A program made the position numbers and the translations under genes. Below are positions 830-62,076 of a stretch of 63,323 nt of DNA, piece after piece. Under the pieces are notes generated by a model. The model did not search any database and was not told where the DNA came from. It was given only the letters and a program-made list of their open reading frames with translations. Position 1 is the stretch's first letter; each line of letters starts with the position of its first letter. This DNA comes from a virus (lineage: Duplodnaviria > Heunggongvirae > Uroviricota > Caudoviricetes), in the IMG/VR virus record IMGVR_UViG_3300003973_000001, positions 64,001-127,323 of that record; one strand, given 5' to 3'.

Positions 830-1042
830 GGAAAATGAGAATCTTTTTGCAAATCTTTTTTTTAAAATCCCAAATCCCGATTGGCTCTAAGGCTCATCCC
901 TATTTTAAGCGAATTTAAAAAGTATTTTTTTCAATTTGTGAATCATTTTTTTGAAAAACGCTATAAACGTTGATATAACGCGGATTGTAGCTATTTTCAG
1001 TTTGTGAATTAAAGAAGCGGAATTATTAAGATTTTTTACTAT

Positions 1043-1051
1043 TGTGGATAA
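1043..1051 (-). promoter_or_regulatory. DnaA box (perfect, inverted relative to 821)
   Basis: TGTGGATAA on + strand; 8/9 matches also at 937-945 and 1003-1011 (minus strand). Confidence 0.6.
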
Positions 1052-1180
1052 CTCGATTAGTCCCTACAGCCACAAGGGATTTGCTACCCTCGATTCGTCA
1101 AAATTTGAGCAAGTTTCTCCTATTAAATATACGTGCGCGCATACACAAAGGGAATTGCCAAAAATCAATTTGAAATTTAT

Positions 1181-1223
1181 TTAAACAAAAGTATTGCAAA
1201 ATGTATTTACCCTATGTTACATT
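1181..1223 (+). promoter_or_regulatory. sigmaA promoter of early operon overlapped by motif A
   Basis: TTGCAA 1194-1199, TG-n-TACATT 1218-1223. Confidence 0.7.
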
Positions 1224-1265
1224 ATTGATGTGCCAGTGAGACACCAACTCACAAGACACAAACAA

Positions 1266-1335
1266 GTTATCTACAATGCCCAACTGGGGCGGATAACCTA
1301 CGAGCGACTATAATGCCCAACTGGGGCGGTTGCTC
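1266..1335 (+). ncRNA. Tandem structured-RNA hairpins in the early-operon leader
   Basis: 18-nt direct repeat AATGCCCAACTGGGGCGG (1275-1292, 1312-1329), each inside a different but fully pairing outer stem. Confidence 0.7.
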
Positions 1336-1605
1336 ATTGTTACATAAATAAGAAATTGAAGGGAAGTGAAGGCGCAACGCCAACATATCACCGAATACGT
1401 AACATGCAAGGTGGCTAAACAAATAGCATGAATCTTTGACAACTAAATGACAGGCTTTAAAGTTTTGGGCTAAATAGACTGGAATGCTCAAGGCGACTAA
1501 AGGGAACATGTCGAGAAGCTTTGCTTTAAATTGATGGGCTGAAAATTTCAGAATATGAATTTAAATCAAAATTAAACTATAAAACAATGAATTGGAGAGA
1601 TTAAA

Positions 1606-2703
1606 ATGAAAGAACTAAAAGTAGCAGAATTAAAACAAGAGGTAAAAGCATTTCGTAACATCATTAACATGAACTTATCAGCAAAGGAAGAACTTGCAAC
1701 GGAATTAACAGGCGCTGAAATTTCAGCTCTAAAATGTGGTTATAGCGCTATGAAAAAGGCTGAATTAGTAGAATTGTATCAAGCGCTTATCGCTTTACGT
1801 GACAGACTTGATAAAGTAGTTGCTGAAATTGCTGATGCTGAATTTAAGGCGGAGGAGCAAAGCGCTCCTTCTTGTCCTGCTGTTGAGAATATGCTTGCAA
1901 TGGCATTAGGAAAGAAACCAAAAGTGAAAAAAGAGCCAAAATATGGCACTGTTGAAAAACGTACAAAATTAGTAAATGATAAATTAGAGCTTGCAAAGCA
2001 AAATACGAAGGATGGGGAAATGAGATTATTCTTCGGAAATGGTAACAAGAAATTAAATGGAATTTTAACTTTCTCATTACCACCAGTTGCAACATGTCCA
2101 TACGCAACGGAAAATTGCATCATGAAATGTTATGCGCTGAAAGATTACTACAGAAATTGGGATAACGTTTCAAAATCTCAAAATATCAATTTCGAGATGA
2201 CAAAGCGCGCTGATTTCGTAGACATGGCAACAAAAATGCTAAAAATCGAAGCTTTAAAACATGAAGTAGAAAATACAGTAAACGGCACTGATGAGCCTTT
2301 AACAGTTCGAATTCATGTATCTGGTGATTTCTACTCTCAAGAATATTTTGACGCGTGGGTTCAAATTGCTGAGAATCTAAAAGGATTACCAATCCAATTT
2401 GGATGCTACACAAAATCAATTCCATTCATCAAAACTCACTTAAAACGCGAGGGAAAAAAATTATCTGACATCAACATCAATTTCATGTTCTCTTTATGGG
2501 ACGACACAAAAGAAAAATTCGTTGCAATGGCTGAAGAAATGGGAATGAACGTCTTCACTGCATACAACAAAAAAACTTCTGATGTACCTGCTGATTATGT
2601 AGCGTGTCCAGATGATGTTAAAAAAGGAGCATGCGGAACAACTTGCAACATGTGTTATGAAAAGTCACCACGCAGAAAAAAAATTGCTATCGCGATTCAC
2701 TAA
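1606..2703 (+). CDS. GP88-like (radical-SAM-related Cys-motif) protein with N-terminal Rho-N/HeH-like helical domain
   Basis: FSLPPVATCPYATENCIMKCYA, RIHVSGDFY, C-terminal CPxxxxxGACGTTCNMC; N-terminal LKVAELK...GYSAMKKAELVE. Confidence 0.65.
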   Translation: MKELKVAELKQEVKAFRNIINMNLSAKEELATELTGAEISALKCGYSAMKKAELVELYQALIALRDRLDKVVAEIADAEFKAEEQSAPSCPAVENMLAMALGKKPKVKKEPKYGTVEKRTKLVNDKLELAKQNTKDGEMRLFFGNGNKKLNGILTFSLPPVATCPYATENCIMKCYALKDYYRNWDNVSKSQNINFEMTKRADFVDMATKMLKIEALKHEVENTVNGTDEPLTVRIHVSGDFYSQEYFDAWVQIAENLKGLPIQFGCYTKSIPFIKTHLKREGKKLSDININFMFSLWDDTKEKFVAMAEEMGMNVFTAYNKKTSDVPADYVACPDDVKKGACGTTCNMCYEKSPRRKKIAIAIH

Positions 2704-2787
2704 AACTTATTAAACAAAAGATTTGCAGAGCGCTTGTATAAAGCAGGCGCTCAAAAAAATAATTCAACTATAGAGGAGAAATTAAAA

Positions 2788-3270
2788 ATGAAAAAATTTA
2801 TCAAAATGTTATTAGTGGTTATGGTTACAGCTATCAGTGTAGGGATGTTTACAAAAGAAGCGGAGCAAAAAAATATTTCAGTACAAGCGGAGCAAATGAG
2901 CGCTCAAGAAAAAGAATTGCAAGACGTAAAGAAAGAGTTAGCAGACGCAAAGGAAAAAAATTCTCAAGCAGAAAAAATTACTACAATCAATCACTTCATT
3001 ATTGACAAGGTGGACGAAAAATTTGCTTATGCACTTGCAATTGATGATTATGGAACGTTTGAAGAAAATTATGTAGTAATCGAAAAAGAAGATTATTACG
3101 GTGTAGCGTACAAACAAGGCGATATAGTAACAATTTCATTCGATGGGTTTGGAGAGTTAGGAGACCACGAGCGCACGACACAAGGACAACTAGAGATGTT
3201 AAACGATGGATTTGGTGGAATCATAGAGAGTTACAAGAAAGGTTTTGAGGTTGAAAAGCCTCAAGCCTAG
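2788..3270 (+). CDS. Secreted or membrane-anchored hypothetical protein
   Basis: RBS GAGGAG; MKKFIKMLLVVMVTAISVG signal-like N-terminus; coiled coil. Confidence 0.7.
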   Translation: MKKFIKMLLVVMVTAISVGMFTKEAEQKNISVQAEQMSAQEKELQDVKKELADAKEKNSQAEKITTINHFIIDKVDEKFAYALAIDDYGTFEENYVVIEKEDYYGVAYKQGDIVTISFDGFGELGDHERTTQGQLEMLNDGFGGIIESYKKGFEVEKPQA

Positions 3271-3308
3271 TAACAGGCGAGAAAAAAATTTTAAAGGAGA
3301 GAAATAAA

Positions 3309-7342: not shown

Positions 7343-7540
7343 ATGTTAGGCAAGATTAGATTTCATAAACCGAGTATTTGCATGACTCTGGAGGTCGAGA
7401 CAGGCAAGCAATTATCTTTCAAGAGTAATTGCATCAAAGAAGCGTCAGAGCGCTGTACGAAGCATTTACAGCGCTTAGGATTAAAGCATGGAGTTTTACG
7501 TGAGACAGTTACAAAAGAAATTTTAAAAACGTTCCATTAA
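7343..7540 (+). CDS. Hypothetical protein
   Basis: ORF with RBS. Confidence 0.6.
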   Translation: MLGKIRFHKPSICMTLEVETGKQLSFKSNCIKEASERCTKHLQRLGLKHGVLRETVTKEILKTFH

Positions 7541-7549
7541 ACAAAAGAT

Positions 7550-7578
7550 TTGCAATGTAATTAATTTAATGATATGAT
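7550..7578 (+). promoter_or_regulatory. sigmaA promoter overlapped by motif A
   Basis: TTGCAA-17-TATGAT with extended TG. Confidence 0.7.
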
Positions 7579-10162: not shown

Positions 10163-10365
10163 GAGTGGATTAGAATGTACAAGAGAGCAGAGCCTGTTTT
10201 AATTAATGAAAATACTTGGGTGGAAGTTAACGAGGGACACCTCGTTCTCTTCCAGATAAGTAGAGTAGATGGTCAAACGCGACATATTGTAATAGATGAT
10301 GAAGGCAAAGAGAAGTTGCGAGAAATTATAAAATAAACTTTTATACAAAAGATTTGCAGAGGGTG

Positions 10366-13823: not shown

Positions 13824-14159
13824 ATGACTAATACGCACGATTCGAAAAGACGACCAGAAGTAGGCGTTAAAGATATGGATAAATACGAAAATGGTGGACT
13901 TGAGATTGAGGAACGATTAACAAATGGATATTTAATGTATGTACCATATGGTATTCATTGTGATATTTTTGAGTCAATTGAAGTTGGTATTCGTTTGATG
14001 TCTAAAAGAATTGAAGAGTTAAACAAAACTCTTAATGAGATTACAGATGACACAGGCATCAATCCCTCTGTTAAGAGAATGCTTAAAGAGCAGATAGATG
14101 ACATGAAGAAGCATCTACATGTATTAGAGAAGATATCCCCAATCAAGCACGAGATTTAA
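13824..14159 (+). CDS. Hypothetical protein
   Basis: GGAGG RBS. Confidence 0.7.
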   Translation: MTNTHDSKRRPEVGVKDMDKYENGGLEIEERLTNGYLMYVPYGIHCDIFESIEVGIRLMSKRIEELNKTLNEITDDTGINPSVKRMLKEQIDDMKKHLHVLEKISPIKHEI

Positions 14160-14238
14160 ACAAATTTATTGCAATACATATTAAAAACTATTAAACTGTA
14201 TGAATGGATTAATAAATTTAAAAATGCGGAGGAACAGA

Positions 14239-14559: not shown

Positions 14560-14597
14560 GCAATGGGGCTAATAGAAGGCTCATTGCGATTCTTATT
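14560..14597 (+). terminator. Hairpin, possible intrinsic terminator
   Basis: GCAATGGG/CTCATTGC stem, weak U tract. Confidence 0.5.
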
Positions 14598-14653
14598 CAA
14601 ACAAAAGATTTGCATAAAAAGAAGTTAAATGCTACAATAATCTCTAATGAGAG

Positions 14654-14954: not shown

Positions 14955-14983
14955 TTGACTGTCTAGTGTTATGGTGTTACACT
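14955..14983 (+). promoter_or_regulatory. Promoter of the recombinase-like gene, containing motif B
   Basis: TTGACT-17-TACACT. Confidence 0.7.
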
Positions 14984-15016
14984 AATACACGTAGTAATCA
15001 AAAGGAGATGATTTAT

Positions 15017-16036
15017 ATGATAGCACAAGTAATTGAATTGAATGATTCTGAAGCAGTAGATTTACATAATTTTAAAATCTACAATATTTTTCAATCTTTT
15101 ATAGGAGCGCATGCGATGAACTCAGAGCGAACAGCAGGGGAGTATCAGAGTAGAATCACAGAGTTCTTTCAAATTGTATTAAATAAACCGATTCAACTAG
15201 TAAAGGAAGAGGATGTTATAAATATTGAAAGATTAGATATTCAGAACTATGTTAGCAAGTTACTGGAAAATAAGAATTCTAAAAAGACTATAAAGACTAA
15301 ACTCAATAGCGTATCTAGTTTTTATAATGAAATGATGAAGAATAAGATATCGTTGAATCAATCGATTCTAAGAGTCAGTATGAAGACGACAACAAAGCAT
15401 CATGATTCACTATCATTTCATGAGTTAGAAGACCTGTATGAGTTTATGAGAGGCGAAAAGGAATTATCTTTAGAAAAGCGTCTCGTAACGAAGTTCTTTG
15501 CTACGACAGCAAATCGTAGGAGTGTTACATTCAATATGACTTGGAATAACATCACACAAAAGACAGACGTTGTGACAGGTAGAAAAGTGTGGGTAGTAAC
15601 AGTAATAGCAAAAGGTGTGAAAGAATCAGAGAAGCCAATCTCAGATGAATTCTATGAGGAGTTGCAACAGTTGAATAATGGACAAGATAAAGTATTCAAC
15701 CTATCCTCTAGGACGTATGAGAGAGCCTTAGAGAGATTTTCTAAGCAGTTGGGCAGGAAGGTCACTATCCATGGATTAAAGGCTACAGCAGTTACTATAG
15801 GATATCAGATGACAAAAGATATTAACCTTTGTAAGCAGTTAGCAGACCATGAAGATATTTCAACTACAGGAATCTATCTGAAAGAAGAGAAGTCTTATAC
15901 GAATCAGCTTAGCTACAATATGAGCAGAAAGTTAGATGATTCTATTTTAAAAGATATGAGCAAAGAAGATTTATTGAAGTTTCTAGAAGATAATGAGGAT
16001 ATTAAGAATTCAATCTTAATGAGATTGGGTGTATAG
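15017..16036 (+). CDS. Tyrosine recombinase/integrase-family protein (SPbeta YopP-like?)
   Basis: SAM-like N-domain; ANRRS (R), HGLK (K replaces R of HxxR), LADHEDISTTGIY (H, Y). Confidence 0.8.
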   Translation: MIAQVIELNDSEAVDLHNFKIYNIFQSFIGAHAMNSERTAGEYQSRITEFFQIVLNKPIQLVKEEDVINIERLDIQNYVSKLLENKNSKKTIKTKLNSVSSFYNEMMKNKISLNQSILRVSMKTTTKHHDSLSFHELEDLYEFMRGEKELSLEKRLVTKFFATTANRRSVTFNMTWNNITQKTDVVTGRKVWVVTVIAKGVKESEKPISDEFYEELQQLNNGQDKVFNLSSRTYERALERFSKQLGRKVTIHGLKATAVTIGYQMTKDINLCKQLADHEDISTTGIYLKEEKSYTNQLSYNMSRKLDDSILKDMSKEDLLKFLEDNEDIKNSILMRLGV

Positions 16037-16049: not shown

Positions 16050-16078
16050 TTGACACCATTAAGCAAAAGTATTACAAT
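16050..16078 (+). promoter_or_regulatory. sigmaA promoter with motif A in the spacer
   Basis: TTGACA-17-TACAAT; 29 of 30 bp identical to 31610-31639. Confidence 0.8.
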
Positions 16079-16373: not shown

Positions 16374-16554
16374 GTAACATGATTGAAAATGGTTGATATA
16401 ATAACTGTTTTCGCTTATAATTTATTTAAGCAAAAGATTTGCAGAATTTTAGTAGTTAAATTAAGCGAATTAACCAATCGCTTCAAAACTTAGGAGGTTT
16501 TTACATTGAATCAATCTATTACAAAGCACATAATAAGGAAGGAAGTAATTAAAA

Positions 16555-16983
16555 ATGAGAGATATTTTAAATTTACAGGCTTTAAAACATAGCAAGAATA
16601 GGAAACATAATAAGATTTATGAGAAAGCACATCGCATTATGTCAGAAGGATATGAGACTCCAGAACTTACTGATGAAGAAGTTATGGAGATTGCAAAAGG
16701 CTTCACAATGCTTGATACGACAGTATTAATCAATGGAGATATAAGAGTAATTAGCAAGAAAGATACTTGGATGATTCGAGATGAAGGCAGATTTTATACT
16801 CTATACCATAAAGGATTCACTTTTACAAAAGAGAGAATGAAAGAGTCTTATCACGTTCAAGATGTGTTCTATGACATAAACTATATTTTTGCAAGCATCG
16901 TAAGCCATGATGACTATGCACTGGGAATCAAATGTCGAAAGCCATCCGAATTAAAGAAAATTGTCGAATCATGTCGAAATTGA
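16555..16983 (+). CDS. Hypothetical protein
   Basis: ORF with RBS. Confidence 0.7.
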   Translation: MRDILNLQALKHSKNRKHNKIYEKAHRIMSEGYETPELTDEEVMEIAKGFTMLDTTVLINGDIRVISKKDTWMIRDEGRFYTLYHKGFTFTKERMKESYHVQDVFYDINYIFASIVSHDDYALGIKCRKPSELKKIVESCRN

Positions 16984-17030
16984 TGTGATTCGTAAGTTTT
17001 AACTGTAATTAACTTGAAAAATTTGTCGAA
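16933..17030 (+). promoter_or_regulatory. Cluster of four perfect Spo0A boxes (TGTCGAA)
   Basis: 16933, 16962, 16972, 17024. Confidence 0.7.
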
Positions 17031-17081: not shown

Positions 17082-17110
17082 TTGCATTCCTTAAGCTAAT
17101 GTATTACAAT
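17082..17110 (+). promoter_or_regulatory. Promoter of the MrpR-like gene with a motif A variant in the spacer
   Basis: TTGCAT-17-TACAAT; TTAAGCTAATGTATTACA 17091-17108. Confidence 0.7.
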
Positions 17111-17195: not shown

Positions 17196-18389
17196 ATGAC
17201 TAAAATTATAATTTCAGACAAACTAAGACAGGAATTGGATGGACTGTTCGATGCTATAAATCACCCTATGTTAAAGGAATCTAGAAATCATTTTGAAACT
17301 AAACTATCTAAAAGTGTTGATTCTAATAAAGTTAAGTCTATCTTAGATAAGGAAGAAACTATTGATATTCTAGATAAAGATGAGGCAATTGCTTTCTTTG
17401 AAAGTCTAAGAATCCATTTTAAAAAGAATGAGTTTAGTTCAGATAATATTAAATTTGCTGAAGATGCTTCAGATACTAAAAAAGGTTTATATAATGAAGA
17501 TTTTAAAGAAGAATATTTAAGCAAGTATAAGGATAACACAAGAAGAGTTAAAAGAATTATTTTTGAAAAATCTAGAACTTTAGAATTAACTTATGGTAAA
17601 GATTTATATGATTTCAACTTTGAACAATTAGAAGAAGTTTTACGCAGTCTTAAAGCTAGTACTGTTAGGAGTTTACAAAATAGCGTAGCTACTATCGCTC
17701 AATATACTAAGTTTGCTATAAAGAATAAAAAGAAAAGCGACAAGATTAATTATATCGATGGATTCACTAAAGATAAGATTGAAGAATACTTAGATAAAGA
17801 ACGAGAAGAGAATATGATTTTCCCTAAACAGGAGATTATGAATATTGCAAATGAGGCAGAGAATCCTCAAGATGGAGTTATCCTAGCATTAATCTTTGAT
17901 GGAGTTAGCAATAAGAATGAGTTTGAAGAATTAATCAATCTATCTGAAGATGATATTGATTTTGATGATAAAGTAATCAAACTTGAAGATAGGGAAGTTC
18001 CTATGAGCGAAGATACTTACACTTTAGTAAAAGGTGCTATCAACGAGCCTAAGTATAGCAGTACTTCTGGAGATGTATCTCGTGAATATAAATTAGCTGA
18101 GAGCGAGTTTGTTCTTCGTGGATTAAGAAATAATAAACAAATCAAATGGCAGAACATTAGTCAACGTATTATCCGCCTTTCTGAGCAGTCTGGTTGGGAG
18201 AAAACTCTAACAGCGACAAATGTTGCTTATAGTGGTCAGCTTTATATGGCAGAGCAATTAATCAGTCAAGGAATGGATGTCGAACAAGCAATTGGAGTAA
18301 TAATTAAAAGATTTGGAATAAATGACAATCCTTCAGCTCAATTTTACTTAAGAGAAAGAATTGAAAAGTATCTTAAAATGAATAAATAA
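17196..18389 (+). CDS. mrpR: MrpR/YopR-family lytic-cycle repressor (catalytically degenerate tyrosine-recombinase fold) with N-terminal extension
   Basis: YLSKY..NTRRV..IIFEKS..LE..YGKDLYDFNFEQLEEVL..L; ILALIFDGV lacking catalytic R; TATNVAYSG lacking HxxR. Confidence 0.7.
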   Translation: MTKIIISDKLRQELDGLFDAINHPMLKESRNHFETKLSKSVDSNKVKSILDKEETIDILDKDEAIAFFESLRIHFKKNEFSSDNIKFAEDASDTKKGLYNEDFKEEYLSKYKDNTRRVKRIIFEKSRTLELTYGKDLYDFNFEQLEEVLRSLKASTVRSLQNSVATIAQYTKFAIKNKKKSDKINYIDGFTKDKIEEYLDKEREENMIFPKQEIMNIANEAENPQDGVILALIFDGVSNKNEFEELINLSEDDIDFDDKVIKLEDREVPMSEDTYTLVKGAINEPKYSSTSGDVSREYKLAESEFVLRGLRNNKQIKWQNISQRIIRLSEQSGWEKTLTATNVAYSGQLYMAEQLISQGMDVEQAIGVIIKRFGINDNPSAQFYLRERIEKYLKMNK

Positions 18390-18561
18390 TCTTATATAAA
18401 GTATCCATATTTAAAAATAATCTAATTCATATAAAAAATAGTCGTAATATAAAATAAAACATATATATAATAGAAGATATTGATTTTAATTAAAATATAA
18501 TATAAGGATATATCTAAAACAGAATGTAATTTTTAACAATTGACTTTTTTAAGAAAAGGTA

Positions 18562-18591
18562 TTGCAAAGAATGTAACATTAATGTTATATT
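18562..18591 (+). promoter_or_regulatory. sigmaA promoter with motif A at -35 and palindrome TAACATTAATGTTA in the spacer
   Basis: TTGCAA-18-TATATT with extended TG. Confidence 0.65.
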
Positions 18592-20968: not shown

Positions 20969-21079
20969 GAATAGAGGGAAGATATTTCCTGTCTCAATTT
21001 GTAACATTAATGTAATACAAAAGTTTTGCAGAGTGTGATACAATTCAATGGTAGCAAAAAATCGAAGGGATTTGGTATT

Positions 21080-21841: not shown

Positions 21842-21940
21842 TTTTTTATAACTTTGCCTTAAGCAAAAGATTTGCAATGAAAGGGGAGATAAATCCATGG
21901 CTCTGTAAGAGGGGCGAAAAAATTTTTTGGAGGAAATGTT

Positions 21941-22697: not shown

Positions 22698-22796
22698 ATG
22701 AAGGAATTCGTACTTGGAGTAACTGCATGCGCTATAGGATTTTGTTTATATGATTTATTTGAATATAGCGTGAAAAAATTTTTTAAAAAATATTAA
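22698..22796 (+). CDS. 32-aa hydrophobic microprotein
   Basis: AAGGAGG RBS; MKEFVLGVTACAIGFCLYDLFEYSVKKFFKKY. Confidence 0.6.
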   Translation: MKEFVLGVTACAIGFCLYDLFEYSVKKFFKKY

Positions 22797-22812
22797 GCAA
22801 AGGTATTGCAAA

Positions 22813-22863
22813 AGAACAAATGTTCTGGTAAGATGGAAACATCAACCAACGAACAAGCGTTCG
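22813..22863. promoter_or_regulatory. Two LexA (DinR/Cheo) boxes in a motif-A promoter
   Basis: AGAACAAATGTTCT 22813-22826 between TTGCAA and TAAGAT; CGAACAAGCGTTCG 22850-22863. Confidence 0.85.
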
Positions 22864-22881: not shown

Positions 22882-23127
22882 ATGCTAATTAAAAAACACT
22901 TAAATAAACAAGCAACTTACTTTACTAAATCACTATTATTCTACCGCGAGAAAAAGTTAGCTTTAGCAATAGGATTTTCTTGGTCGGTAAACGGTGCGAA
23001 ATGGCACGATGAAAATAAAGTGGCTCACACATTTGGATTATTTAAACAAGTAGCTCCATCGACAATTATGAGAGCGTTAGTACTTGGCAGATTACGATTA
23101 AACTTTGTAACAGCAAATAAAAACTAA
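22882..23127 (+). CDS. Hypothetical protein, predicted SOS-inducible
   Basis: AAGGAG RBS; directly downstream of LexA boxes. Confidence 0.7.
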   Translation: MLIKKHLNKQATYFTKSLLFYREKKLALAIGFSWSVNGAKWHDENKVAHTFGLFKQVAPSTIMRALVLGRLRLNFVTANKN

Positions 23128-23147: not shown

Positions 23148-23501
23148 ATGACAACAGCAATTATTATTTTAGTAGAAGAAGAGAAAGTAGCAGTACCTAC
23201 AACACGAGTTTACCCAATGGAAGATATGTTTGTAAGCGATGATAGAGAGCTTATCCGAGATGCTAAAATGGTATCTCTAATGTCTGAACTTAAGGATTCT
23301 CCGCGCGTGGATTACATTAGAAAACAATTTCATAATGCAGTTCGAAGAAGCCTTGGAATTAATAATGTAATAGCTGTAGCGCCTCATAAAGATGGAACAA
23401 CAGTAGATATTGTAGTCTTTGATGTAGAAGCCACTGTAGACAATCAATTTACTACTGGATGGGATGCAGAAAAGCAACTACCATACATTGAATTAAACTA
23501 A
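23148..23501 (+). CDS. Hypothetical protein
   Basis: GGAGG RBS. Confidence 0.7.
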   Translation: MTTAIIILVEEEKVAVPTTRVYPMEDMFVSDDRELIRDAKMVSLMSELKDSPRVDYIRKQFHNAVRRSLGINNVIAVAPHKDGTTVDIVVFDVEATVDNQFTTGWDAEKQLPYIELN

Positions 23502-23611
23502 TAAAAGATGAGTTTTATTATGAAAGGGGAGATGATACATGACGAAAGGCGAAGTGTTATAAGTAGAGAAAATATCTAAACAAACGTTTGATTAACTGGG
23601 AGGAAATTATA

Positions 23612-24442
23612 ATGTTAGCAAAGCAAACTACTGAATATATGGAGCAAATGAATAGGAATATCGATGATAAATTACGCATCATGGACTGGATTACTGGAGA
23701 CCGAGTCTTAGATGCAGGATGTGGTGGAGGAGAGTTTTTGCTTCGCTTACATCAAAGCGGATATGATGCATACGGATTAGATTTCTCACTACTATCGTTC
23801 AAGGAGCTACATAAGAAAGGCTTAAACAAATGGTTTATCCATGGAGATATCTTGAACATGAAAACGTATCTAGAAGGTATGAACATTGATACAATCGTAT
23901 TCTCATCAGTATTGCATGAAGTATATTCATATAATGGATTTGATATTACAAAGGTATCTGAAACTCTAAAGAATGCCTATGATGCATTGCCAGTAGGTGG
24001 TAGAATTATCATTCGTGACGGTATCAAGATGAGGGATGGACATAAGAAAGTTCTTGTCAGATTCAAAGATGTCAATGATGTACTATTCCTTACAGAGTAC
24101 TGCAAGAGATTTAAAGGCAGAAAAGTAACCTTTGAACCAGTAGACAAACTTACTTACAAGATGAAATTAGATGATGCTATGGAATTCCTATACACTTACA
24201 CATGGGGATGGGAATCATTTGATAGAGAAGTACAAGAACAATTCGGCATCGCAACACCTAATGACTATGTAAATCTTGTCAAATTTAATCTACCTAAAGC
24301 AAAAGTATTGCACAAAGAAAGCTATCTTCAGCATGGATATGTAGACCACTTAACAAATAAAGCTTGGGTTCTACATGAAGATAAGAGTCTTGCAAAATAT
24401 CCAGATTCAACATTCTTAATGGTCATTGAAAAAGGAGAGTAA
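23612..24442 (+). CDS. Class I SAM-dependent methyltransferase
   Basis: VLDAGCGGG, FSSVLHE, GGRIIIRD. Confidence 0.85.
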   Translation: MLAKQTTEYMEQMNRNIDDKLRIMDWITGDRVLDAGCGGGEFLLRLHQSGYDAYGLDFSLLSFKELHKKGLNKWFIHGDILNMKTYLEGMNIDTIVFSSVLHEVYSYNGFDITKVSETLKNAYDALPVGGRIIIRDGIKMRDGHKKVLVRFKDVNDVLFLTEYCKRFKGRKVTFEPVDKLTYKMKLDDAMEFLYTYTWGWESFDREVQEQFGIATPNDYVNLVKFNLPKAKVLHKESYLQHGYVDHLTNKAWVLHEDKSLAKYPDSTFLMVIEKGE

Positions 24443-24488
24443 CACTCTCTTAAATATAAAAAACAAACACAAGAGGAGATTTTAAATC

Positions 24489-29486: not shown

Positions 29487-29505
29487 AAAACATTAAACGA
29501 AAGTA

Positions 29506-34040: not shown

Positions 34041-34092
34041 ATACAGAAAGTTTAAAGGGGAATCTTAATTGATTTCCCTTTAAACAAAAGTA

Positions 34093-36444: not shown

Positions 36445-36530
36445 AATTTATTAAACAAAAGTATTGCAGAGGTGCTGTTAGTGTGATAGTATTACATTAA
36501 CAGCAAAGCAGTACAAAAGGAGAGAATGAT

Positions 36531-38749: not shown

Positions 38750-38965
38750 ATGAAAATGGCAATCTCAAAAGAGACAAACGAAGTATTAACTGGCAAGGCA
38801 GGCGTAATGGGAGTAGAGAGAACGTTTGGTCAAAAGCTTAGTACACAAGGTCATTATGCAAAAGATTTGCACCTTGTAGATGTTGATACGTCTAAAATGA
38901 ATGGTGAAGATGAATATGTAATAGTAAGCAAATCATATCTTGCATCGCTTGAGGCAGACCGATGA
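38750..38965 (+). CDS. Hypothetical protein
   Basis: AAGGAG RBS. Confidence 0.6.
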   Translation: MKMAISKETNEVLTGKAGVMGVERTFGQKLSTQGHYAKDLHLVDVDTSKMNGEDEYVIVSKSYLASLEADR

Positions 38966-41239: not shown

Positions 41240-41323
41240 ACCATTAAACAAAAGATTTGCAGAATTGCTGATATTGTGATAAGATTACAGTATCAGCAAT
41301 TTTCTTGTATAGGTGATGAAATT

Positions 41324-42397: not shown

Positions 42398-42606
42398 TGA
42401 AGAAGATTTATGTTATCAAATACACACATATTATGACAGGACTAGGAAAAGATGAGGAGAGAACTCATTACTTTGACGAGTCTCAAAAGGCTCAATTTCT
42501 ATCAAAATATACGATATTAAAAGAGGCTTGGTACTGTTTTAATCTAGAGGCTTACAAGGCAGACAGTGTTTCAAAATTAGATGTAGATTCATTATTAGAC
42601 TTTTAA
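42394..42606 (+). CDS. Hypothetical protein
   Basis: Coupled ORF. Confidence 0.6.
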   Translation: MMKKIYVIKYTHIMTGLGKDEERTHYFDESQKAQFLSKYTILKEAWYCFNLEAYKADSVSKLDVDSLLDF

Positions 42607-42635
42607 ACAAAAGTATTGCAGAAAGAAGGAATAGA

Positions 42636-44569: not shown

Positions 44570-44590
44570 AAAATTTATTAAACAAAAGTA

Positions 44591-44619
44591 TTGCAAAGAA
44601 TTTAAGGCTATGCTAATAT
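44591..44619 (+). promoter_or_regulatory. sigmaA promoter overlapped by motif A
   Basis: TTGCAA-17-TAATAT with extended TG. Confidence 0.7.
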
Positions 44620-44964: not shown

Positions 44965-47900
44965 ATGTACGATACACTAACAGCAGTAGAGAAAACATAT
45001 ACACCGATACACTTACATGACCATCATAGTAATATTAATATGGTTGAGGTAGTAACGAAATTTGAACAGTATGTAGAAAGAGCAATTGAACTTGGGCTTC
45101 CTACGATTGTATGTACGAATCATGGAGTTCTTACAGGTTGGTATAACCGTAAAAAGCTTCTCGAATCGAAAAATATGAAGTATGTTCACGCTGTAGAAGC
45201 TTATGTCACTTGGGATTTAGAAAACAAGGCTCGTGATAATTTTCACTTATCATTATTCGCCAAGAACTTTGAAGGATTCAAGGAGTTGAATAAGCTAGTA
45301 TCAAACTCATTTAACAGAAGCGACAATCACTTCTATTACAATCCTCGTATCGCATGGAAAGACATTAAGAATACGAGCGACAACATCTTAGTATCAACTG
45401 CATGTTTAGGAAGCTTTATTTGGAAACTTAAGGATGATGATGAGAAGTACGCTGAAATCCTACAATGGATTGATAGTAATAAGCATCGAGTATTCTTAGA
45501 AGTTCAGCCTCATCGACATTTAGAGCAGGCTAAGCTGAATAGACATCTAATCAATTTAGCTAGAAATAACGGATGGAGAATCATTGCAGGCGGTGACGTT
45601 CATGCATTAAACAAAGAGCATGATGAAGCTCGTAAGATTCTTCAGAAGTCAAAACGAGTTGAATTCGCGGATGAAGATAGCTTTGACTTAACATTAAAGA
45701 GCTACGATGAAATCTTCGAACAGTTCCAAGCTCAAGGAGTATTAACAGGCGATGAAATTGCAGAAGCATTAAACAATACAAACGTATTATTAGATATGGT
45801 AGAGCCATTTAAGCTTGATTATTCTAAGAAGTATCCTAAGTTGCATGCTAATCCAGACAGAGTGCTTCAAGAGAAGATTGCAGAGGGTATTAAGTTTCGT
45901 GGTATTGATAAGATACCGCATCATGAGAAGCTTGTCTACGCACAGAGAATTCAGCACGAACTAGATACTTATAGAGCGAATGAAGCTGAGAACTATCTGC
46001 TACTAGAGGATATGGTTAAGACATATGCTAGGGAAAATGATATAGCATACGGATATGGTCGAGGCTCTGTAAGCGGAAGTATCATCGCATATCTAATGCA
46101 AATTACAGAAATGAACTCAATCAAGCGAGGTTTAAACTTCGAGCGATTTATGAATAAAGAACGTATCAGTCTAGCCGATGTTGATTCGGACTACGACCCA
46201 CAAAAACGTTACATGATTCAAGATTTCTTAATGAATCATCCAGAGCTGTACTGCGCTCCAATCATGACATCTAATACAATCGCTATGAAAGGCGCTATCC
46301 GAGATATTGGTCGAGGCTTAGGCATGCCACTTAACGAGGTAGATGACATTGCTAAAGGTGTAGAGGAAGCAGAGCATTACTATCGTGATAGATATCCAGA
46401 GCTGTTTAAATATGTTGATATCGTATTGGGAACAATCACATCAATTGGACAACATGCATGCGGTATCTGCGTATCTCCAATTCCACTAGATGAGAATATG
46501 GGATTAATCACAACTAAAGATTCTCCTTATCCATTAACAATGCTTAATATGAAGGAAATCGATGACCAAAACTATGTAAAACTTGATATCTTAGGCTTAG
46601 ATACTACGTCTGTAATCAGCGAGGTTTGTAGATTAGCAGGGATAGACTTTGTAACTCCTCAGAACCTAGATTCGGAAGATGAGAAGGTTTGGAATAGTAT
46701 TCTAGATAGCAATGTTGGTATTTTCCAGTGGGAAAGTGACTTCTCGCATCAGATATACAAAGACCTATTCAGCAAAGAAACAATCGCTAAGATTAAAGCG
46801 CAGAACCCTAACTTCTCATACATAGACCTATTCTCATTAGGAAACGCGATTCTGAGACCATCTGGTGCATCGTATCGCGAAAGTGTATGCCAAGGTGAAT
46901 TCTACGATAACGGACATCCTGCATTGAACGAGTTCCTAGCATCAACACTTGGAAGATTAGTATATCAAGAGCAATTAATGGAGTTTCTGGTGAAATTCTG
47001 TGGATACACAATGGGACAGGCGGACTTAGTCAGACGCGGTATAGGTAAGAAGATTAAGACTATTATAGATACAGAAGTTCCTAAGATTGAAGCTAAATTC
47101 ATTGAAACAATGACAAGAGACTATGGATTATCTTATGAAGAGGCAGAGCGAATCGCTAAGCCATTCATGCAGGTATTCTTAGATAGTGCTGACTATGGCT
47201 TCTCTGTAAACCACTCAGATGCTTATTCTTGGATGGGATATGCTATGGCATGGCTAAGATATTATTATCCAATTGAATTCCTTACAGCATCGTTAAACGT
47301 GAACATAGGGAAGGAAGATAAGACTAATAAACTAGTTGAATATGCGAAAGATAAAGGCATTAAACTAGACGGTATTAAGTTCCGCTATTCTCGTGACGGT
47401 TATATGTTTAATAAGGAAACAAACTCTATCTATCAAGGTGTAGAGCCTATTAAATTCCTTAATGCTCAAGTGGCAGAAGGATTGTATGAACTGCGTAATA
47501 AAGAGTATAAATGTTTTACAGATTTACTTGTTGACATTAAAGATGGTATGGTGTTACACTGTAACAGTAGCTCACAAGTGATTGATGTTAAAGACTTGCT
47601 TAAGATATACGAGCCAAAAGAACTACAGCGAATGGTTAAAGCAGAAGAGGTTGTAACTGTCGGCTCTAATGAAGTTCAAATTAACTCTCGTCAAATGGCA
47701 ATCTTAATATCTCTAAATTACTTCTCAGAGTTTGGGCAAAATAAGAAGCTATTACAACTATTTGAGTTCTTCGAGAAGACTTATAAAAAGACTCTCACAC
47801 TCAAATCTAAAGCAGAACGTTATGCAAAAGTATTGCAGAGAGAACAAGAATTAGAAGATGATAAGCTTTCATTAGTAGAGCAATACGAAAGAGAGCTAGA

Positions 47901-48210: not shown

Positions 48211-48575
48211 TGACTAAGACAACTATCAAAACAATTGAGAACAACGTAACATTTATCAAAAAAGGTGACAAGGTTAAGAAGAATGGAGATATGTTCGTAA
48301 TCTCATCAATGGGTAAACAGAATCCAAGTAGCGCTTTTGAAGGAAGAAATATTGTGAGAAACGAAGCAATTAACGGTGCATTATTTGGAGTAGATTCAAC
48401 GCCAATGCATCCACCAGTATATGCAAGTCAAGCAATTGAAGTATATGCATTAGTGAGTATCACTACTGGGGAAAGATATTACCCTAACCCTTGTTCTTTA
48501 GATGAGCTTGTCCATAAGATTTCAAAAGATGGCTTTAAAAAAGTAAATGAAGTAGAGATTATTGAAAAATCCTAA
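48210..48575 (+). CDS. Hypothetical protein
   Basis: TAATG coupling. Confidence 0.65.
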   Translation: MTKTTIKTIENNVTFIKKGDKVKKNGDMFVISSMGKQNPSSAFEGRNIVRNEAINGALFGVDSTPMHPPVYASQAIEVYALVSITTGERYYPNPCSLDELVHKISKDGFKKVNEVEIIEKS

Positions 48576-48800
48576 AACAAAAGTATTGCAGAGGTGAATG
48601 AAAGATGAGTCCAACATCATTAGTAATATTATCATTTGGAATTACATGCATTTCACCGTTCGTGGGAATAGCAATTGGAGCAATGTTAGATTCCGATGGG
48701 ATAGAAATGGCATTGCTCGCCTTTCTTACAACGATACTAGGGTTCTTTATCACAATAGGAATAATAGCAGTTAACTACTAAAACATAAAACAAGAGGAGA

Positions 48801-53356: not shown

Positions 53357-53401
53357 TTTTTCAACTGCACTTAAGCAAAAGTATTGCAAAGGAGGAAATT
53401 T

Positions 53402-55648
53402 ATGACAACAATTAAAGGTATTGCCACATTTAAAAGAGCTATATTTTCAAAAGGCGACTTCGTTATTGGAGCATTTGAGCCAGTGTCAATAGAGGAAGGC
53501 AAGGTGGAAGTTAATGCATCATTTGGCACTTTCTCAATGAAAGGTGAAATGCCTGCCATGCAGAAAGATGCTGAGTATCACTTTATTGCTGAAGAGGGGC
53601 AGAGACATCCTCAGTATGGTATGTCTTACGACTGTTGCTTCATTAGACAGGATGTTAATCTTGAAAGTGGAGACAGTAAAGATATTAGAAGCTTCCTAGA
53701 AGTAATACTAACGAAGAGACAAGTAGATTCGCTGTATGAGGTATTTGAGAATCCACTTGAGGTAATCAAGGAGAACGACCCAGAAAAGCTTACACAGGCA
53801 AATGGGATAGGTTTAAAGACAGCTAATCGCATTCTTAAACATTATGATTCTCAAAAGGACTATACAGTAGCCTATGTGGAGCTTGGTAAGTTTGGAATCA
53901 CACCGAACACTATCCGTAAAATCGTTGGCTTCTATGGCAGTCCAGAGTTAGCAGTTCAGAAGATTAATAACAATCCATATGAACTTATGAAGATTGATGG
54001 TTACGGATTCAAGACATGTGATGAGATATTCTTTAAAATGGGCGGAGACCCTAACGATAAGATTCGTATTAAATCATTCCTGCTATTTGCATTACAAGAG
54101 GAAGCAGGGAAAGGTCATACATGGTCTGCTCCTTCAGATTTAATTCATACAGCATTAGAGTTTATCCCAACTGCAGACCAAACTTTAATTGGTCGTATCC
54201 TATTAGATAATGAAGATGATGAGTTTTATCTAACACAAGATAAGAAGCGTATCTCATTAAAGCCATTCCAAATGTTAGAGGAGCTTGTAGCAGGACAATT
54301 ATATCGCGTTCTTACAGCCAATAACACATTCGAATATGACGGATGGGAAGATGAAGTTGCCAAGGCTGAAGAAGAACAGGGTTGGAACTTTACAGACCAA
54401 CAGAAGGAAGCAATGCAGATGATGTTAGAGAATAACGTTTCTATCTTACAGGGTTATGGCGGTACAGGTAAAACAACAAGCTTGAAAGCTGTTGCAGATA
54501 TCTTAGAAATGGTTGGATACATTTATGCACAATGCGCTCTAAGTGGTAAAGCATCAAATAACTTGGCTTTGGTAACAGGTCGAGAAAGTAGCACTATTCA
54601 TAGATTATTAGGATTCGATGTTGGTAGTGGCGGATTCCATTACAATCATAAGAATCCATTACCATATGACATTATTATTGTCGATGAGGTGTCTATGGTG
54701 GACGCTCGACTATTTGGTCATTTATTACTAGCAATTCGCTCTGGTGCAAAACTGATTATGCTAGGAGATAGTCAACAATTAGAATCTATTGGCATTCCAG
54801 TTATGATGCCGATGCTAGATAGTCATATGATTCCTACAATGACATTAACTCAGATTCATAGACAAGCACAAAAATCTGCTGTCGTGACGGATTCTATTGC
54901 GATTCGACAAGGTAAACAGGTTGTAAAAGAGTCTATAGGACGTATAATTCATGGGGAATTACAAGATTTAGAGTATGAGTTAGTACAATCAGATGATGAT
55001 ATCTTCCTTAATGTTGTAAGAGAGTTCCATAAACATATTCAAGTGGAAGATATTAAGGATATCCAAATCCTTTCTCAGACTCGTAATAAGGGCAAGAATT
55101 CATGCTTAGCAATCAATAAAGCATGTCAAAAGATGTATAACCCAGAATCGCCAGATAAAGATGAAATTCAAGTAGGTAAAGAAGATACTGGCTACGTATT
55201 ACGACAAGGGGATAAGGTTATCAATATCAGAAACAATTATCAAGCTGTTGATGAGCATGATATGAGCTGTCCTGTATTCAATGGTAATATCGGTATCTTA
55301 GAAGGATTCTATACAGATGACGATGGAGATAACTATATGCTTATCGACTTCGAGGGTATTGGACGATTAAAGATTTATGAAGATAAGTACAGCACAATCG
55401 AATTAGCGTACTGTATCACTGTACATAAGAGCCAAGGTTCTGCTTCTAAGATTATTATCGTAGCATTCCCATATCATTTCTTATTAAATAGTCGCCAATT
55501 AATTTATACAGCAATTACTCGTACACGAAAACACTGTGTAGTTATTGCTACTAAGAAGACTCTTGTGAAAGCAATTCAGAAAGATGATGTGTCAAATAAG
55601 CGCACATACCTTGCCGAATACCTTCATAAGCTTGACAATTCCGCTTAA
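53402..55648 (+). CDS. recD2: RecD2-like SF1B helicase
   Basis: HhH repeats, GYGGTGKT, IVDEVSM, LGDSQQL, AYCITVHKSQG. Confidence 0.95.
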   Translation: MTTIKGIATFKRAIFSKGDFVIGAFEPVSIEEGKVEVNASFGTFSMKGEMPAMQKDAEYHFIAEEGQRHPQYGMSYDCCFIRQDVNLESGDSKDIRSFLEVILTKRQVDSLYEVFENPLEVIKENDPEKLTQANGIGLKTANRILKHYDSQKDYTVAYVELGKFGITPNTIRKIVGFYGSPELAVQKINNNPYELMKIDGYGFKTCDEIFFKMGGDPNDKIRIKSFLLFALQEEAGKGHTWSAPSDLIHTALEFIPTADQTLIGRILLDNEDDEFYLTQDKKRISLKPFQMLEELVAGQLYRVLTANNTFEYDGWEDEVAKAEEEQGWNFTDQQKEAMQMMLENNVSILQGYGGTGKTTSLKAVADILEMVGYIYAQCALSGKASNNLALVTGRESSTIHRLLGFDVGSGGFHYNHKNPLPYDIIIVDEVSMVDARLFGHLLLAIRSGAKLIMLGDSQQLESIGIPVMMPMLDSHMIPTMTLTQIHRQAQKSAVVTDSIAIRQGKQVVKESIGRIIHGELQDLEYELVQSDDDIFLNVVREFHKHIQVEDIKDIQILSQTRNKGKNSCLAINKACQKMYNPESPDKDEIQVGKEDTGYVLRQGDKVINIRNNYQAVDEHDMSCPVFNGNIGILEGFYTDDDGDNYMLIDFEGIGRLKIYEDKYSTIELAYCITVHKSQGSASKIIIVAFPYHFLLNSRQLIYTAITRTRKHCVVIATKKTLVKAIQKDDVSNKRTYLAEYLHKLDNSA

Positions 55649-55770
55649 ACAAAAATATTGCACAAAATTGTTTACAAGATGTATGTATGGATGGTATAAT
55701 TGATTTTGTAGTGATGCAGAGGTGTCGCTTTCAATTATACCGTTAAACAAAAGTATTGCAGAGGTGTAAA

Positions 55771-58262: not shown

Positions 58263-58325
58263 TAAAAGAGGGGATTACTTTTAATCCCCTTAAACTAAAG
58301 TATTGCAGAGGGGTAATTAATAAAC

Positions 58326-60116: not shown

Positions 60117-60120
60117 CTTA

Positions 60121-60149
60121 ATAGGGAGATTCAGTTCTCCCTATTTTTT
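60121..60149 (+). terminator. Intrinsic terminator
   Basis: ATAGGGAGA/TCTCCCTAT plus U tract. Confidence 0.8.
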
Positions 60150-60176
60150 ATACCTATAAGAAGAGGAGAAATCGAT

Positions 60177-60578
60177 ATGAAAAAGGGATTAGAATTATTT
60201 GAGGAAGTATTTGGAGAAGAAATTACGATTGAAGAGGTTCGAGGAGAAGAGGTAGAGGGAGTTGAAATCTCGTATGAGAATGAATTCCATAATGGATGGT
60301 GGATTTATCAAGATGTAATCGTAGATTATAAGGGCAAGAAATACTCATTTGAATATAGAGAGCATTCATCAGACAATTGCTGTGACAACGACTGCTACAT
60401 TAATACGTTTATGGAGATTAAGAAGTCTTATAAGTTAGAATTAAGCGAAGATGAGTATAACTTAATTCGTTGGATGTGTGAGGGGTCTTATTATTCAGCA
60501 AAAGACGATGGAAATGAAGAAAAGATGAAGGATGTAAATAGGCTAGAAAACAAGCTAATTGAGCTATATTTAAAATAA
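60177..60578 (+). CDS. Hypothetical acidic protein
   Basis: GAGGAG RBS. Confidence 0.7.
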   Translation: MKKGLELFEEVFGEEITIEEVRGEEVEGVEISYENEFHNGWWIYQDVIVDYKGKKYSFEYREHSSDNCCDNDCYINTFMEIKKSYKLELSEDEYNLIRWMCEGSYYSAKDDGNEEKMKDVNRLENKLIELYLK

Positions 60579-60600
60579 AACAAAAGATTTGCGAAAAGTG

Positions 60601-60629
60601 TTGACCTGTCTCACTATCATGTGTATAAT
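60601..60629 (+). promoter_or_regulatory. sigmaA promoter flanked by two motif A copies
   Basis: TTGACC-17-TATAAT; motif A at 60576 and 60645. Confidence 0.8.
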
Positions 60630-60691
60630 CAAGTTATAAGTTACTTAAACAAAAGTATTGCAAAATAGATGAACTTACAGGAGGAAATATA

Positions 60692-61789
60692 ATGTCTAAA
60701 ACAGTAGATATATTAAAGGATACAGGAGTATCAGCAGATTGGAAGACGGTAATGGGTACGGAAGAAGCATTGGTGGCGAAGGAATTTGCTGATGAGAAGG
60801 TTAAGGAGTTCTCCCACAACGATTTAGATGGAGTAGGGTGCGGTGTCGTAACTTTAATGGCACATCCAACAGCAGACATCGAATATTGTGCTTATCACGA
60901 TATTAACGATAGAGTTAAAGCGTTTATTATGACTAAGGGTTACGAGATGTACGACAGAATCTTCATCACAGATATCTCAGTAAACGAAGAGGTTGCAGAA
61001 CTAATTCAAGTATACTGTCCAGACAAGGTTATCTTACTAGACCATCATGGAACTGCAAAATGGCTAAATAAGTACGATTGGGCATCAGTTCAAGAAGAAG
61101 GCGTTTACGGTATTAATAGTGGAACAAACATGATATTCGATTATCTAGTATCTCAAGGACACTTCAAAGGTGAACGATATCAAGATGCATTAACTATCTT
61201 CGTAGAGATGGTAAGACGTTATGATTCATGGGAATGGAAGAACGTATATAATGACCAAAATCCAATGCAGTTGAACAATCTATTCTTCTTAGTTGGTGTC
61301 AATAAATTTGTAAAAAGATATGTAGACCGATTCAATACACTTGATTTATTCACTGTTTGCGAAGGATATTGGATGGAAATGTTCGATGAGACAGATGTTG
61401 CAGTATTAACAATCGATAACAATAAGAAGGAAGCCTACATTAAGCGTAAAGAGAAGCAAATGATTAAGGCTAATCTGATTGGATATGATGTTGGCGTGGT
61501 ATTCGCAGAGCAATATATCAGTGAATTAGGGAACGAGCTATCTGAGAGAAATCAAGACTTAGAGTTTATTGTTATCATAGATATGGGAGCTAAGAAAGTG
61601 TCTTATCGTACAATTCATGCCCATATCAATCTAGGTACAGATGTAGCAGGATTCTATGGCGGTGGCGGTCACCCTAAAGCATCTGGAAGCATGTTTGATG
61701 AGCGAGCATTGAAATGGGTGTACAAAATCATATTCGGTCTAGGGTTTATCGGAAAATTCAAAAAGATTGTTGACAGATTTAAAAAGTAG
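60692..61789 (+). CDS. DHH/DHHA1 phosphoesterase (NrnA/NrnB-like)
   Basis: HNDLDG, ITD, LDHH, GGGGHPKASG. Confidence 0.9.
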   Translation: MSKTVDILKDTGVSADWKTVMGTEEALVAKEFADEKVKEFSHNDLDGVGCGVVTLMAHPTADIEYCAYHDINDRVKAFIMTKGYEMYDRIFITDISVNEEVAELIQVYCPDKVILLDHHGTAKWLNKYDWASVQEEGVYGINSGTNMIFDYLVSQGHFKGERYQDALTIFVEMVRRYDSWEWKNVYNDQNPMQLNNLFFLVGVNKFVKRYVDRFNTLDLFTVCEGYWMEMFDETDVAVLTIDNNKKEAYIKRKEKQMIKANLIGYDVGVVFAEQYISELGNELSERNQDLEFIVIIDMGAKKVSYRTIHAHINLGTDVAGFYGGGGHPKASGSMFDERALKWVYKIIFGLGFIGKFKKIVDRFKK

Positions 61790-62076
61790 TAGTACAATAG
61801 GAGGTGAGGTTAATAATTAATTTTTAATCTCACCTTAAGCAAAAGATTTGCAAGAGGAGGTGGAAGGAATACTAATAGAAAAGGAGATTCATTATGAAAG
61901 AAATGATTAAACAATGGGAAACAAGCGAGATTGTAGATTTCCTAAATTCATATAATAGAGTTTTAGAAGTACATAAAGAGGTATCAGAGCCTTGGAAGGC
62001 ATGGTACGAAGTAGCAAAACAAGAACTTGATAGCAGAAGCTCGTTAATGGCAATGCTATATAAATAGGAGGTCGCT

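Follow-up and report, generated by a model that had tools for sequence, protein, structure and literature searches.

The second half of the virus record IMGVR_UViG_3300003973_000001 (Caudoviricetes), a stretch of 63,323 nucleotides out of 127,323 bp, carries all along its length the 18-bp word TTAAACAAAAG(TA/AT)TTGCA, here called the box. This stretch is referred to as the window, and positions are window positions unless genome positions are indicated. With a probability of roughly 60 % the box is the asymmetric docking site of a monomeric master repressor with integrase fold belonging to the MrpR/YopR/SroF family, most probably the 397-amino acid (aa) protein encoded at 17196–18389 on the + strand, which would block promoters as well as read-through transcription.

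Distribution and orientation of the box

The pattern TTAARCAAAAGWWTTRCA is present in 19 exact copies in the window, every one on the + strand, and in 42 copies at two or fewer mismatches, 41 of them on the + strand, whereas dinucleotide-preserving shuffles lead to an expectation of 0.00 and 0.31 copies, respectively. The mean spacing amounts to about 1.5 kb. A preliminary description of this DNA had counted about 36 copies at distances of about 1.8 kb, and these values are recovered when six weak intragenic copies with two mismatches are dropped. Its statement that all but one copy are co-oriented with transcription proved correct: the sole copy against the arm (848–865, − strand, one mismatch) is located in the 3′ end of the + strand open reading frame (ORF) 457–918 and has neither a phased −10 element nor a Shine-Dalgarno sequence (SD) downstream; its chance expectation is near zero. 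The claim of a network covering the whole arm holds for the window, but the array is in fact genome-wide. The complete genome comprises 31 exact boxes and 67 at two or fewer mismatches, of which 25 are found in the half outside the window, where the structural (late) genes are located and where 19 of the 25 lie on the − strand. The direction of the box equals the local gene direction in 66 of the 67 copies.

Most copies (49 of 67, 73 %) are intergenic and hence concentrated in the 12.8 % non-coding part of the genome (binomial p ~1e-29); this count is based on a simple gene set with a coding share of 87 %. By far the most frequent 11-mers in the genome all stem from the box word, and no comparably repeated word was found after masking of the box, just iterons and a word with three copies. 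Two sub-variants, GTATTG and GATTTG, exist. The flanking sequences (30 nt upstream and 60 nt downstream) contain essentially no information, and therefore the element can be regarded as a discrete asymmetric 18-mer. The lack of both dyad symmetry and flank information fits a monomer bound to an asymmetric site, as solved for SroF of phage phi3T.

A strict orientation is also a property of polar DNA motifs with a role in replication, segregation, packaging or recombination (KOPS- or Chi-like), which are oriented by replichore, and the orientation of the box indeed switches near the region of the replication initiator (Rep) and the iterons at about 55–57 kb of the genome. A second switch at 4–10 kb, however, follows the gene strand and not a point opposite to the origin, and the intergenic preference together with the fixed registers to −10 boxes and SDs described below makes such a function extremely unlikely.

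Three registers relative to promoters and Shine-Dalgarno sequences

In the first register, the TTGCA of the box represents the −35 hexamer (18–22 of the 67 copies). The motif TAnnnT peaks exactly 18 nt past the last base of the box (18 of 67 copies in comparison to 1.8 expected per offset), corresponding to a spacer of 17 bp if TTGCAN is taken as −35, and at the same offset 11 copies show TGnTAnnnT. All eight promoters of this kind listed in the preliminary description (1194, 7550, 14169, 14610, 18562, 22806, 29506 and 44591) possess a TAnnnT 17–18 bp after TTGCAN, and six of them are TG-extended. The corresponding boxes are 1181–1198 (exact; TG-extended TACATT, spacer 18), 7537–7554 (exact; TG-TATGAT, spacer 17), 14156–14173 (two mismatches; TAAACT, spacer 17), 14597–14614 (one mismatch; TG-TACAAT, the promoter of a YopP-like gene), 18549–18566 (two mismatches; TG-TATATT, spacer 18), 22793–22810 (one mismatch; TG-TAAGAT, the −35 of an SOS-type promoter), 29493–29510 (one mismatch; TATAAT, spacer 17) and 44578–44595 (exact; TG-TAATAT). 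Further exact copies in this register are located at 30106–30123 (TAAGCT), 36451–36468 (TG-TAGTAT) and 41244–41261 (TG-TAAGAT).

In the second register the box fills the spacer. The three copies for which this had been proposed are all confirmed by an upstream −35 and a TACAAT: a TTGACA or TTGCAT is followed by 3 nt and the box, and the −10 element TACAAT, at a spacer of 17 bp, is composed of the final four box bases and the adjoining AT. Two of them are exact copies in the TTACA form, 16059–16076 (TTGACA 16050–16055, TACAAT 16073–16078) and 31620–31637 (TTGACA 31611–31616, TACAAT 31634–31639). The third one is the variant box 17091–17108 (CTAATG, two mismatches) in the promoter of the MrpR-like gene (TTGCAT 17082–17087, TACAAT 17105–17110).

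The third register is devoid of a promoter. In about 15 copies, approximately a quarter, an SD starts 0–8 nt after the box and a start codon follows 10–30 nt after it; SD-like 4-mers reach 6–8 per offset at these distances, six-fold above the expected 1.1. Between box and SD there is no space for a −10 element plus a transcription start. Such boxes precede the genes of thymidine kinase (42603–42620, exact, adjoining the SD, ATG 15 nt downstream), of a RecD2-like helicase (53371–53388, exact, adjoining AAGGAGG, ATG 13 nt downstream), of NrdI (55743–55760, exact, adjoining the SD, ATG 10 nt downstream) and of NrdF (58290–58307, one mismatch, ATG 18 nt downstream), and a further one adjoins an SD at 48573–48590 (one mismatch, ATG 14 nt downstream). 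The TAA within the box (TTAAAC or TAAAAC) provides the preceding gene with its stop codon in some cases (window 42603–42606 and, in the TAAAAC form, 48573–48575; genome 1546 and 59848), and some operon junctions consist solely of stop, box, SD and start.

Seven copies are immediately preceded by a GC-rich hairpin without a U-tract. A hairpin ending at the first base of the box was seen at 33003, 34080, 58290 and 61835 of the window and at 18013, 25586 and 40576 of the genome, all of them promoter-less copies, and the same arrangement is visible in the relatives W01 and L092 introduced below. Over the whole array, a hairpin end lies within 4 nt of the box in nine of 67 copies as compared to 3 % at random positions. 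Three of the window copies concerned are exact: 33003–33020 lies 45 nt ahead of a Sak4-like gene, 34080–34097 is followed by an SD and an ATG 19 nt downstream, and 61835–61852 has a start 41 nt downstream.

Moreover, promoter and leader copies occur in tandem. The window contains three such pairs: 31620/31708, with the exact copy 31708–31725 in the leader of the same operon 88 bp downstream; 55645/55743, with the upstream member 55645–55662 (one mismatch) at a distance of 98 bp; and 60576/60645, in which 60576–60593 (two mismatches) is positioned just ahead of a TTGACC/TATAAT promoter and the exact leader copy 60645–60662 lies 69 bp past it, with an ATG 29 nt downstream. In the other arm there are three tandem pairs with a spacing of exactly 78 bp. 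The preliminary description had been concerned with the promoter-linked copies of one arm, and about 40 % of all copies are not situated at promoters, so that for them a roadblock ('stoperator') or some other role is required. A scan of window 1–3000 for consensus promoters and terminators performed no better than on shuffles.

A protein-binding DNA site is the best explanation for three registers and for copies without promoter signals. A fixed promoter element would hold one register, which a protein site need not do, and so the three registers favour an operator. The box could otherwise be a positive promoter element (MotA-box-like, or an UP/−35 element) for a phage activator or for the host sigma-A polymerase, with the promoter-less copies being decayed or incidental. 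The exact phasing of TTGCA as −35, often together with a TG-extended −10, would suit this assumption. The same is true for four copies of the relative G002 which end in the consensus TTGAC, for the box of W01 with its end TTGAA(A), nearer to TTGACA, and for that of L097, often found in an activator-like position just ahead of a separate −35. However, an activator bound to the three copies in the spacer/−10 of otherwise consensus promoters would block the polymerase, and about 15 exact or near-exact SD-abutting copies are conserved as well as those at promoters. TG-extended −10 promoters need neither a −35 nor an activator, and neither a sigma nor a MotA-like gene was detected by Pfam scans and ORF inspection. 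A positive element is therefore improbable. Promoters of other polymerases were considered as well. A homologue of the YonO polymerase was not found by blastp against the SPbeta ORFs, and all ORFs longer than 400 aa are either accounted for or tail-like; as a consequence, a promoter for a phage RNA polymerase was discarded. A sigma-54, extracytoplasmic function (ECF) or other alternative-sigma promoter was dismissed by inspection, as a GG at −24 and a conserved −10 block further downstream are both missing.

An action in RNA, as a leader element near the ribosome binding site (RBS) recognised by a regulator of translation or by an RNA-processing nuclease, comparable to the targets of T4 RegA or RegB, would be in line with the sense orientation, the SD enrichment after the box and the seven preceding hairpins. 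The box itself, however, shows neither a conserved structure nor a covarying partner. In about 25 copies (−35 and spacer registers) it lies upstream of the start of its own promoter and is thus absent from that RNA, so a general RNA role does not apply; such a function is very unlikely.

The MrpR/SroF-family protein and its gene module

The 17196–18389 protein had been labelled MrpR-like, and matches by Pfam, PDB and structure model agree on this. It matches the Pfam family PF22822 (MrpR_N_CB) with 1.7e-21, above the family cut-off, and phmmer against PDB finds the YopR/MrpR/SroF chains 8bj6, 8a0a and 9rd5 with 1e-17. An AlphaFold (AF2) model calculated with seven relatives as input reaches a pLDDT of 86.6; in a Foldseek search with it, ranks 1–7 are all SroF/YopR/MrpR with a top TM score of 0.73 to 9rd5, 'Phi3T SroF bound to DNA'. 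The protein is a member of the MrpR/SroF family by sequence and fold. Its match to Pfam Phage_integrase (19.7 bits) stays below the cut-off of 27.1, and the stretch in which the catalytic HxxR motif is expected reads L-T-A-T-N in all relatives, its position being set by expectation. An extra helical N-terminus of about 95 aa (residues 1–95, window 17196–17480) is confidently modelled. It is missing in SPbeta MrpR and phi3T SroF, present and moderately conserved in all close relatives and belongs to no Pfam family.

The promoter of this gene was said to carry a variant of the box, and the variant at 17091 is indeed part of an arrangement conserved in six relatives. In this phage (G000), G001, W01 and L098 it consists of TTGCAx, 3 nt and a variant box with AATGTATTACAAT; related forms exist in L097 and L092, and G002 and G003 show a degenerate box in the −35 register. 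A conserved variant box in the repressor's own promoter fits negative autoregulation via a weaker site. Upstream of this promoter, TGTCGAA words are repeated at 16933–17030, and they are found at the same place in G001.

Two further genes belong to the module. A YopP-like protein with recombinase fold (14966–16036) and a 142-aa ORF (16555–16983), the latter with an exact box (16426–16443) 111 nt ahead of it, accompany the MrpR-like gene in every relative with a box array. With identities of 49–94 % and 45–96 %, respectively, they are more conserved than the MrpR-like protein (39–88 %).

Relatives and box variants

An exact-word scan of viral contigs revealed three complete relatives, G001, G002 and G003, in which the same box occurs 63, 65 and 54 times, respectively. 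Compared with the 17196 protein, the MrpR-like protein has an identity of 87 % in G001, 45–51 % in G002 and 42–45 % in G003. SPbeta-type proviruses, whose repressor is 27 % identical, lack this box. Of 20 testable cases in G002 and G003, 13 have retained the box ahead of the homologous gene, compared to a background of about 27 %. A megablast search with 8 kb against a phage collection, in which the record of this genome itself may be masked, gave no match.

Another relative, W01, is the circular 137.6-kb plasmid NZ_CP032366.1 of Bacillus wiedmannii with a repressor of 45 % identity. Its array of about 63 copies has the sequence AAACAAAA[G/T]TATTGAA and thus ends in TTGAA where this phage has TTGCA. 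The G form of the W01 box tends to occur at promoters and the T form at SDs, a weak association (Fisher p = 0.047). The box of L098 resembles the W01 type, L097 has AAACAAAACCATTAA (ending ...AAAACCATTAA), and in L092 GTATTGCA is retained while the 5′ half differs.

The phi3T repressor SroF docks as a monomer on an asymmetric box of 26 bp, and 24 bp are read by its CB helix 2 and the CAT helices 13 and 18 (bioRxiv 10.1101/2025.11.27.690993). When the contact residues of SroF are mapped onto the repressor alignment, the five TTGCA phages and L097 all show W-x-N at the start of helix 13 where both TTGAA phages show G-x-I, and in CB helix 2 the CCATTAA phage has S-I-K-N in place of the motif T-(R/K)-R-V. 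It is suggestive that the residues at the base-reading positions of SroF seem to change with the box variant, in events that are too few for statistics.

The preliminary description had assigned the box to the 17196 protein as its operator. The operator reading itself, the family of the protein, the variant in its own promoter and the correlation between box and residues speak for this, while the YopP-like protein and the 142-aa ORF stay candidate readers. That one of these two, or an unrecognised regulator, reads the operator instead of the MrpR-like protein is unlikely. Their constant company with the MrpR-like gene and their stronger conservation, which fits a near-constant box, have to be set against the fact that only for the MrpR/SroF family has the binding of an asymmetric element repeated over the genome been demonstrated by experiment, that the residues aligned with the SroF base contacts track the box variants and that it is the MrpR-like gene whose promoter carries the conserved variant box. 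For many small ORFs no Pfam family exists, a point in favour of another reader; Pfam scans of 25 small ORFs around the switch regions yielded no repressor of the helix-turn-helix (HTH) type.

Several observations weigh against a docking site for the MrpR-like repressor. The identical box persists with repressors that share just 42–48 % identity, and such constancy across divergent repressors is unusual for immunity specificities. A genome-contig scan based on the repressor alignment yielded a single match, a homologue in Heyndrickxia sporothermodurans (43 % identical, with a similar helix 13), and the surrounding 21 kb are free of a box array. The module also conserves the YopP-like protein and the 142-aa ORF, and the assignment of the reader therefore rests on homology and two or three correlated changes. 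In addition, the box shows no convincing sequence likeness to the SPbeta repeated element (SPBRE) or to the 26-bp Phi3TRE and is shorter, with 18 bp as compared to 24–26 bp read by SroF, and the blocking of read-through presented below is drawn solely from an analogy to phage L5. The Heyndrickxia homologue is chromosomal (strain J6TS2, L076:9530-10915; 43–50 % identical), and its N-terminal extension looks GIY-YIG-like by eye; together with the missing array this makes the case uninformative.

Proposed mode of action

Binding of the 17196 protein to the box and repression by it are inferred by homology to SPbeta and phi3T. During lysogeny the repressor would occupy the box at about 20 promoters and cover the −35, i.e. 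the last five bases of the box, so that RNA polymerase would be excluded. The same exclusion may take place at the three promoters whose spacer and −10 are made up by the box, and the conserved weaker variant in the repressor's own promoter would provide negative autoregulation. At about 15–25 promoter-less junctions, where the box separates the upstream stop from the following RBS and is frequently preceded by a GC hairpin, it could act as an orientation-dependent roadblock to read-through, by analogy to the 'stoperators' of L5 (PMC9283540).

A tentative and rather doubtful extension assumes that the repressor is also a genome-wide silencer of elongation. Polymerase would be stalled by the box-bound repressor after the hairpin, giving rise to a repressor-dependent terminator, so that the junctions would be shut during lysogeny and passable during the lytic cycle, and the box series together with the helix changes would be a specificity code. 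If this were true, the specificity of integrase-fold repressors could be read from the series TTGCA, TTGAA and CCATTAA and the accompanying replacements in CB helix 2 and helix 13.

Genome context and further box copies

The architecture of the genome is SPbeta-like and includes a terminase with 47 % identity, HU-like, YopP-like and MrpR-like proteins, DnaB, a polymerase and NrdIEF. Outside the window there are a plasmid-type initiator (HTH_36; genome 55396–56445, L007:5396-6445) and a ParM/Alp7A-like actin gene (genome 60712–61878, L007:10712-11878). These two genes for plasmid maintenance lack a preceding box, as would be anticipated since a plasmid prophage has to express them continuously, in contrast to the lytic genes, which have one. 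A KilAC/Bro antirepressor-like gene (genome 57021–57818) is preceded by a box as well. Owing to the initiator, the actin gene and the circular relative from B. wiedmannii, the element is probably a plasmid prophage.

The box 22793 supplies the −35 of a promoter with two palindromic LexA-type boxes (22813–22863, + strand): AGAACAAATGTTCT at 22813–22826 in the spacer, and CGAACAAGCGTTCG at 22850–22863, at about +10, which is the only exact CGAACN4GTTCG in the window. The SOS operon behind it comprises an 81-aa basic ORF (22882–23127) followed by a 117-aa acidic ORF (23148–23501, + strand) without a Pfam family, whose product is a candidate Sar-like antirepressor. The promoter arrangement is conserved in G001, W01, L097 and L098; an exact LexA box is missing in G002 and G003.

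The following copies of the window remain to be listed. Exact boxes are found at 2710–2727 (no phased −10, a hairpin follows, next start 60 nt downstream) and at 21859–21876, 64 nt ahead of a kinase-like gene. The copy 10341–10358 (one mismatch) is placed immediately upstream of a separate TTGACT/TATAAT promoter and 21013–21030 (two mismatches) at the 5′ end of a YorM-like 3D-domain gene. One-mismatch copies inside genes are 24295–24312, in the 3′ part of a methyltransferase gene and 176 nt ahead of a TerC gene, 36627–36644 in a small ORF, 38854–38871, and 47820–47837 in the DNA polymerase gene. Cargo-like genes at 23588–25145 and 27659–28372 encode, according to Pfam, an S-adenosylmethionine (SAM)-methyltransferase, a TerC-family membrane protein and a vWA/TerF-like protein.

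Comparison with known systems

In mycobacteriophage L5 and other Cluster A mycobacteriophages, dozens of short asymmetric sites, operators as well as 'stoperators', are bound by the repressor gp71 as a monomer (PMC9283540; PMC6550527). There the sites lie at one or few promoters and in short intergenic gaps of both arms, strictly oriented with transcription, and the asymmetric boxes of this phage share the placement in short intergenic gaps, the transcriptional orientation and the presence in both arms. The fold of gp71 (HTH plus 'stirrup' domain) is, however, unrelated to the integrase fold, and therefore the resemblance is one of function and not of membership. Further differences are the actinobacterial hosts and the 13-bp sites of the L5 system as well as the many more true promoter operators in this phage.

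Closer is phi3T, whose Phi3TRE/SroF system includes the SOS-controlled antirepressor Sar (bioRxiv 10.1101/2025.11.27.690993; PDB 9rd5, 9rgl). DNA-bound SroF gives the best superposition with the model of the 17196 protein, the logic of a monomer on an asymmetric box would be the same, and small ORFs, including an acidic one similar in size to Sar, follow a promoter that contains two LexA-type boxes. In contrast to phi3T, the box has 18 bp instead of 26 bp and another sequence, and the Sar candidate bears no detectable similarity to a known family.

In SPbeta, a prophage of Bacillus subtilis, MrpR binds the SPBRE at about ten promoters according to chromatin affinity precipitation sequencing (ChAP-seq) (PMC10516654). 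A consensus derived here from these ten promoters reads roughly CAAATACAAAwAATATGTATA. Comparison with the published SPBRE, as suggested in the preliminary description, shows that the box is unrelated to it in sequence. The MrpR/SroF family has phage-specific boxes, and hence this mismatch does not exclude membership. With the consensus, 11–12 SPBRE copies were found in SPbeta, all co-oriented with transcription and mostly in the spacer/−10 register; three abut an SD (yonX, yopM and yopV), and one promoter and leader pair is arranged in tandem 64 bp apart. It follows that the layout in this phage is that of a proven MrpR operator set at 5–6 times the copy number and extending into the late arm.

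Both systems have an integrase-fold repressor of the same Pfam family and an asymmetric, scattered and co-oriented element, situated in promoter spacers/−10, next to SDs and in tandem pairs of promoter and leader copies. They also share a syntenic module (yopP-like ... mrpR-like) and corresponding targets with the element, namely the yorE/Sak4 operon and yorM, which in SPbeta has an SPBRE at its start just as the YorM-like gene has the box 21013. Differences concern the number of copies (11–12 versus 67), the commonest register, which is the −35 in this phage, the coverage of the late (structural) arm, the lack of the YonO polymerase, the repressor with its identity of just 26–27 % and its additional N-terminal domain of about 95 aa, and the probable plasmid prophage state with Rep, iterons and a ParM-like protein. 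No arbitrium module (aimR/aimP) was found; blastp of all ORFs against the SPbeta ORFs reveals no AimR, which is a weak test, and a 389-aa ORF behind the promoter with the 31620 box has no Pfam family; arbitrium is not needed for the repressor-box system itself.

In these phages the box can be used in annotation as a marker of transcription unit starts, and experiments on the recognition of long asymmetric sites by an integrase fold could be guided by the natural box variants and the repressor variants paired with them. The MrpR/SroF switch as such is already known from the Bacillus phages SPbeta and phi3T. New is its probable occurrence in a distant lineage, the large phage-plasmids of the Bacillus cereus group and Heyndrickxia type in which neither arbitrium nor the YonO polymerase was found, and at a far larger scale, with about 65 sites, one per 2 kb, which include the late genes.

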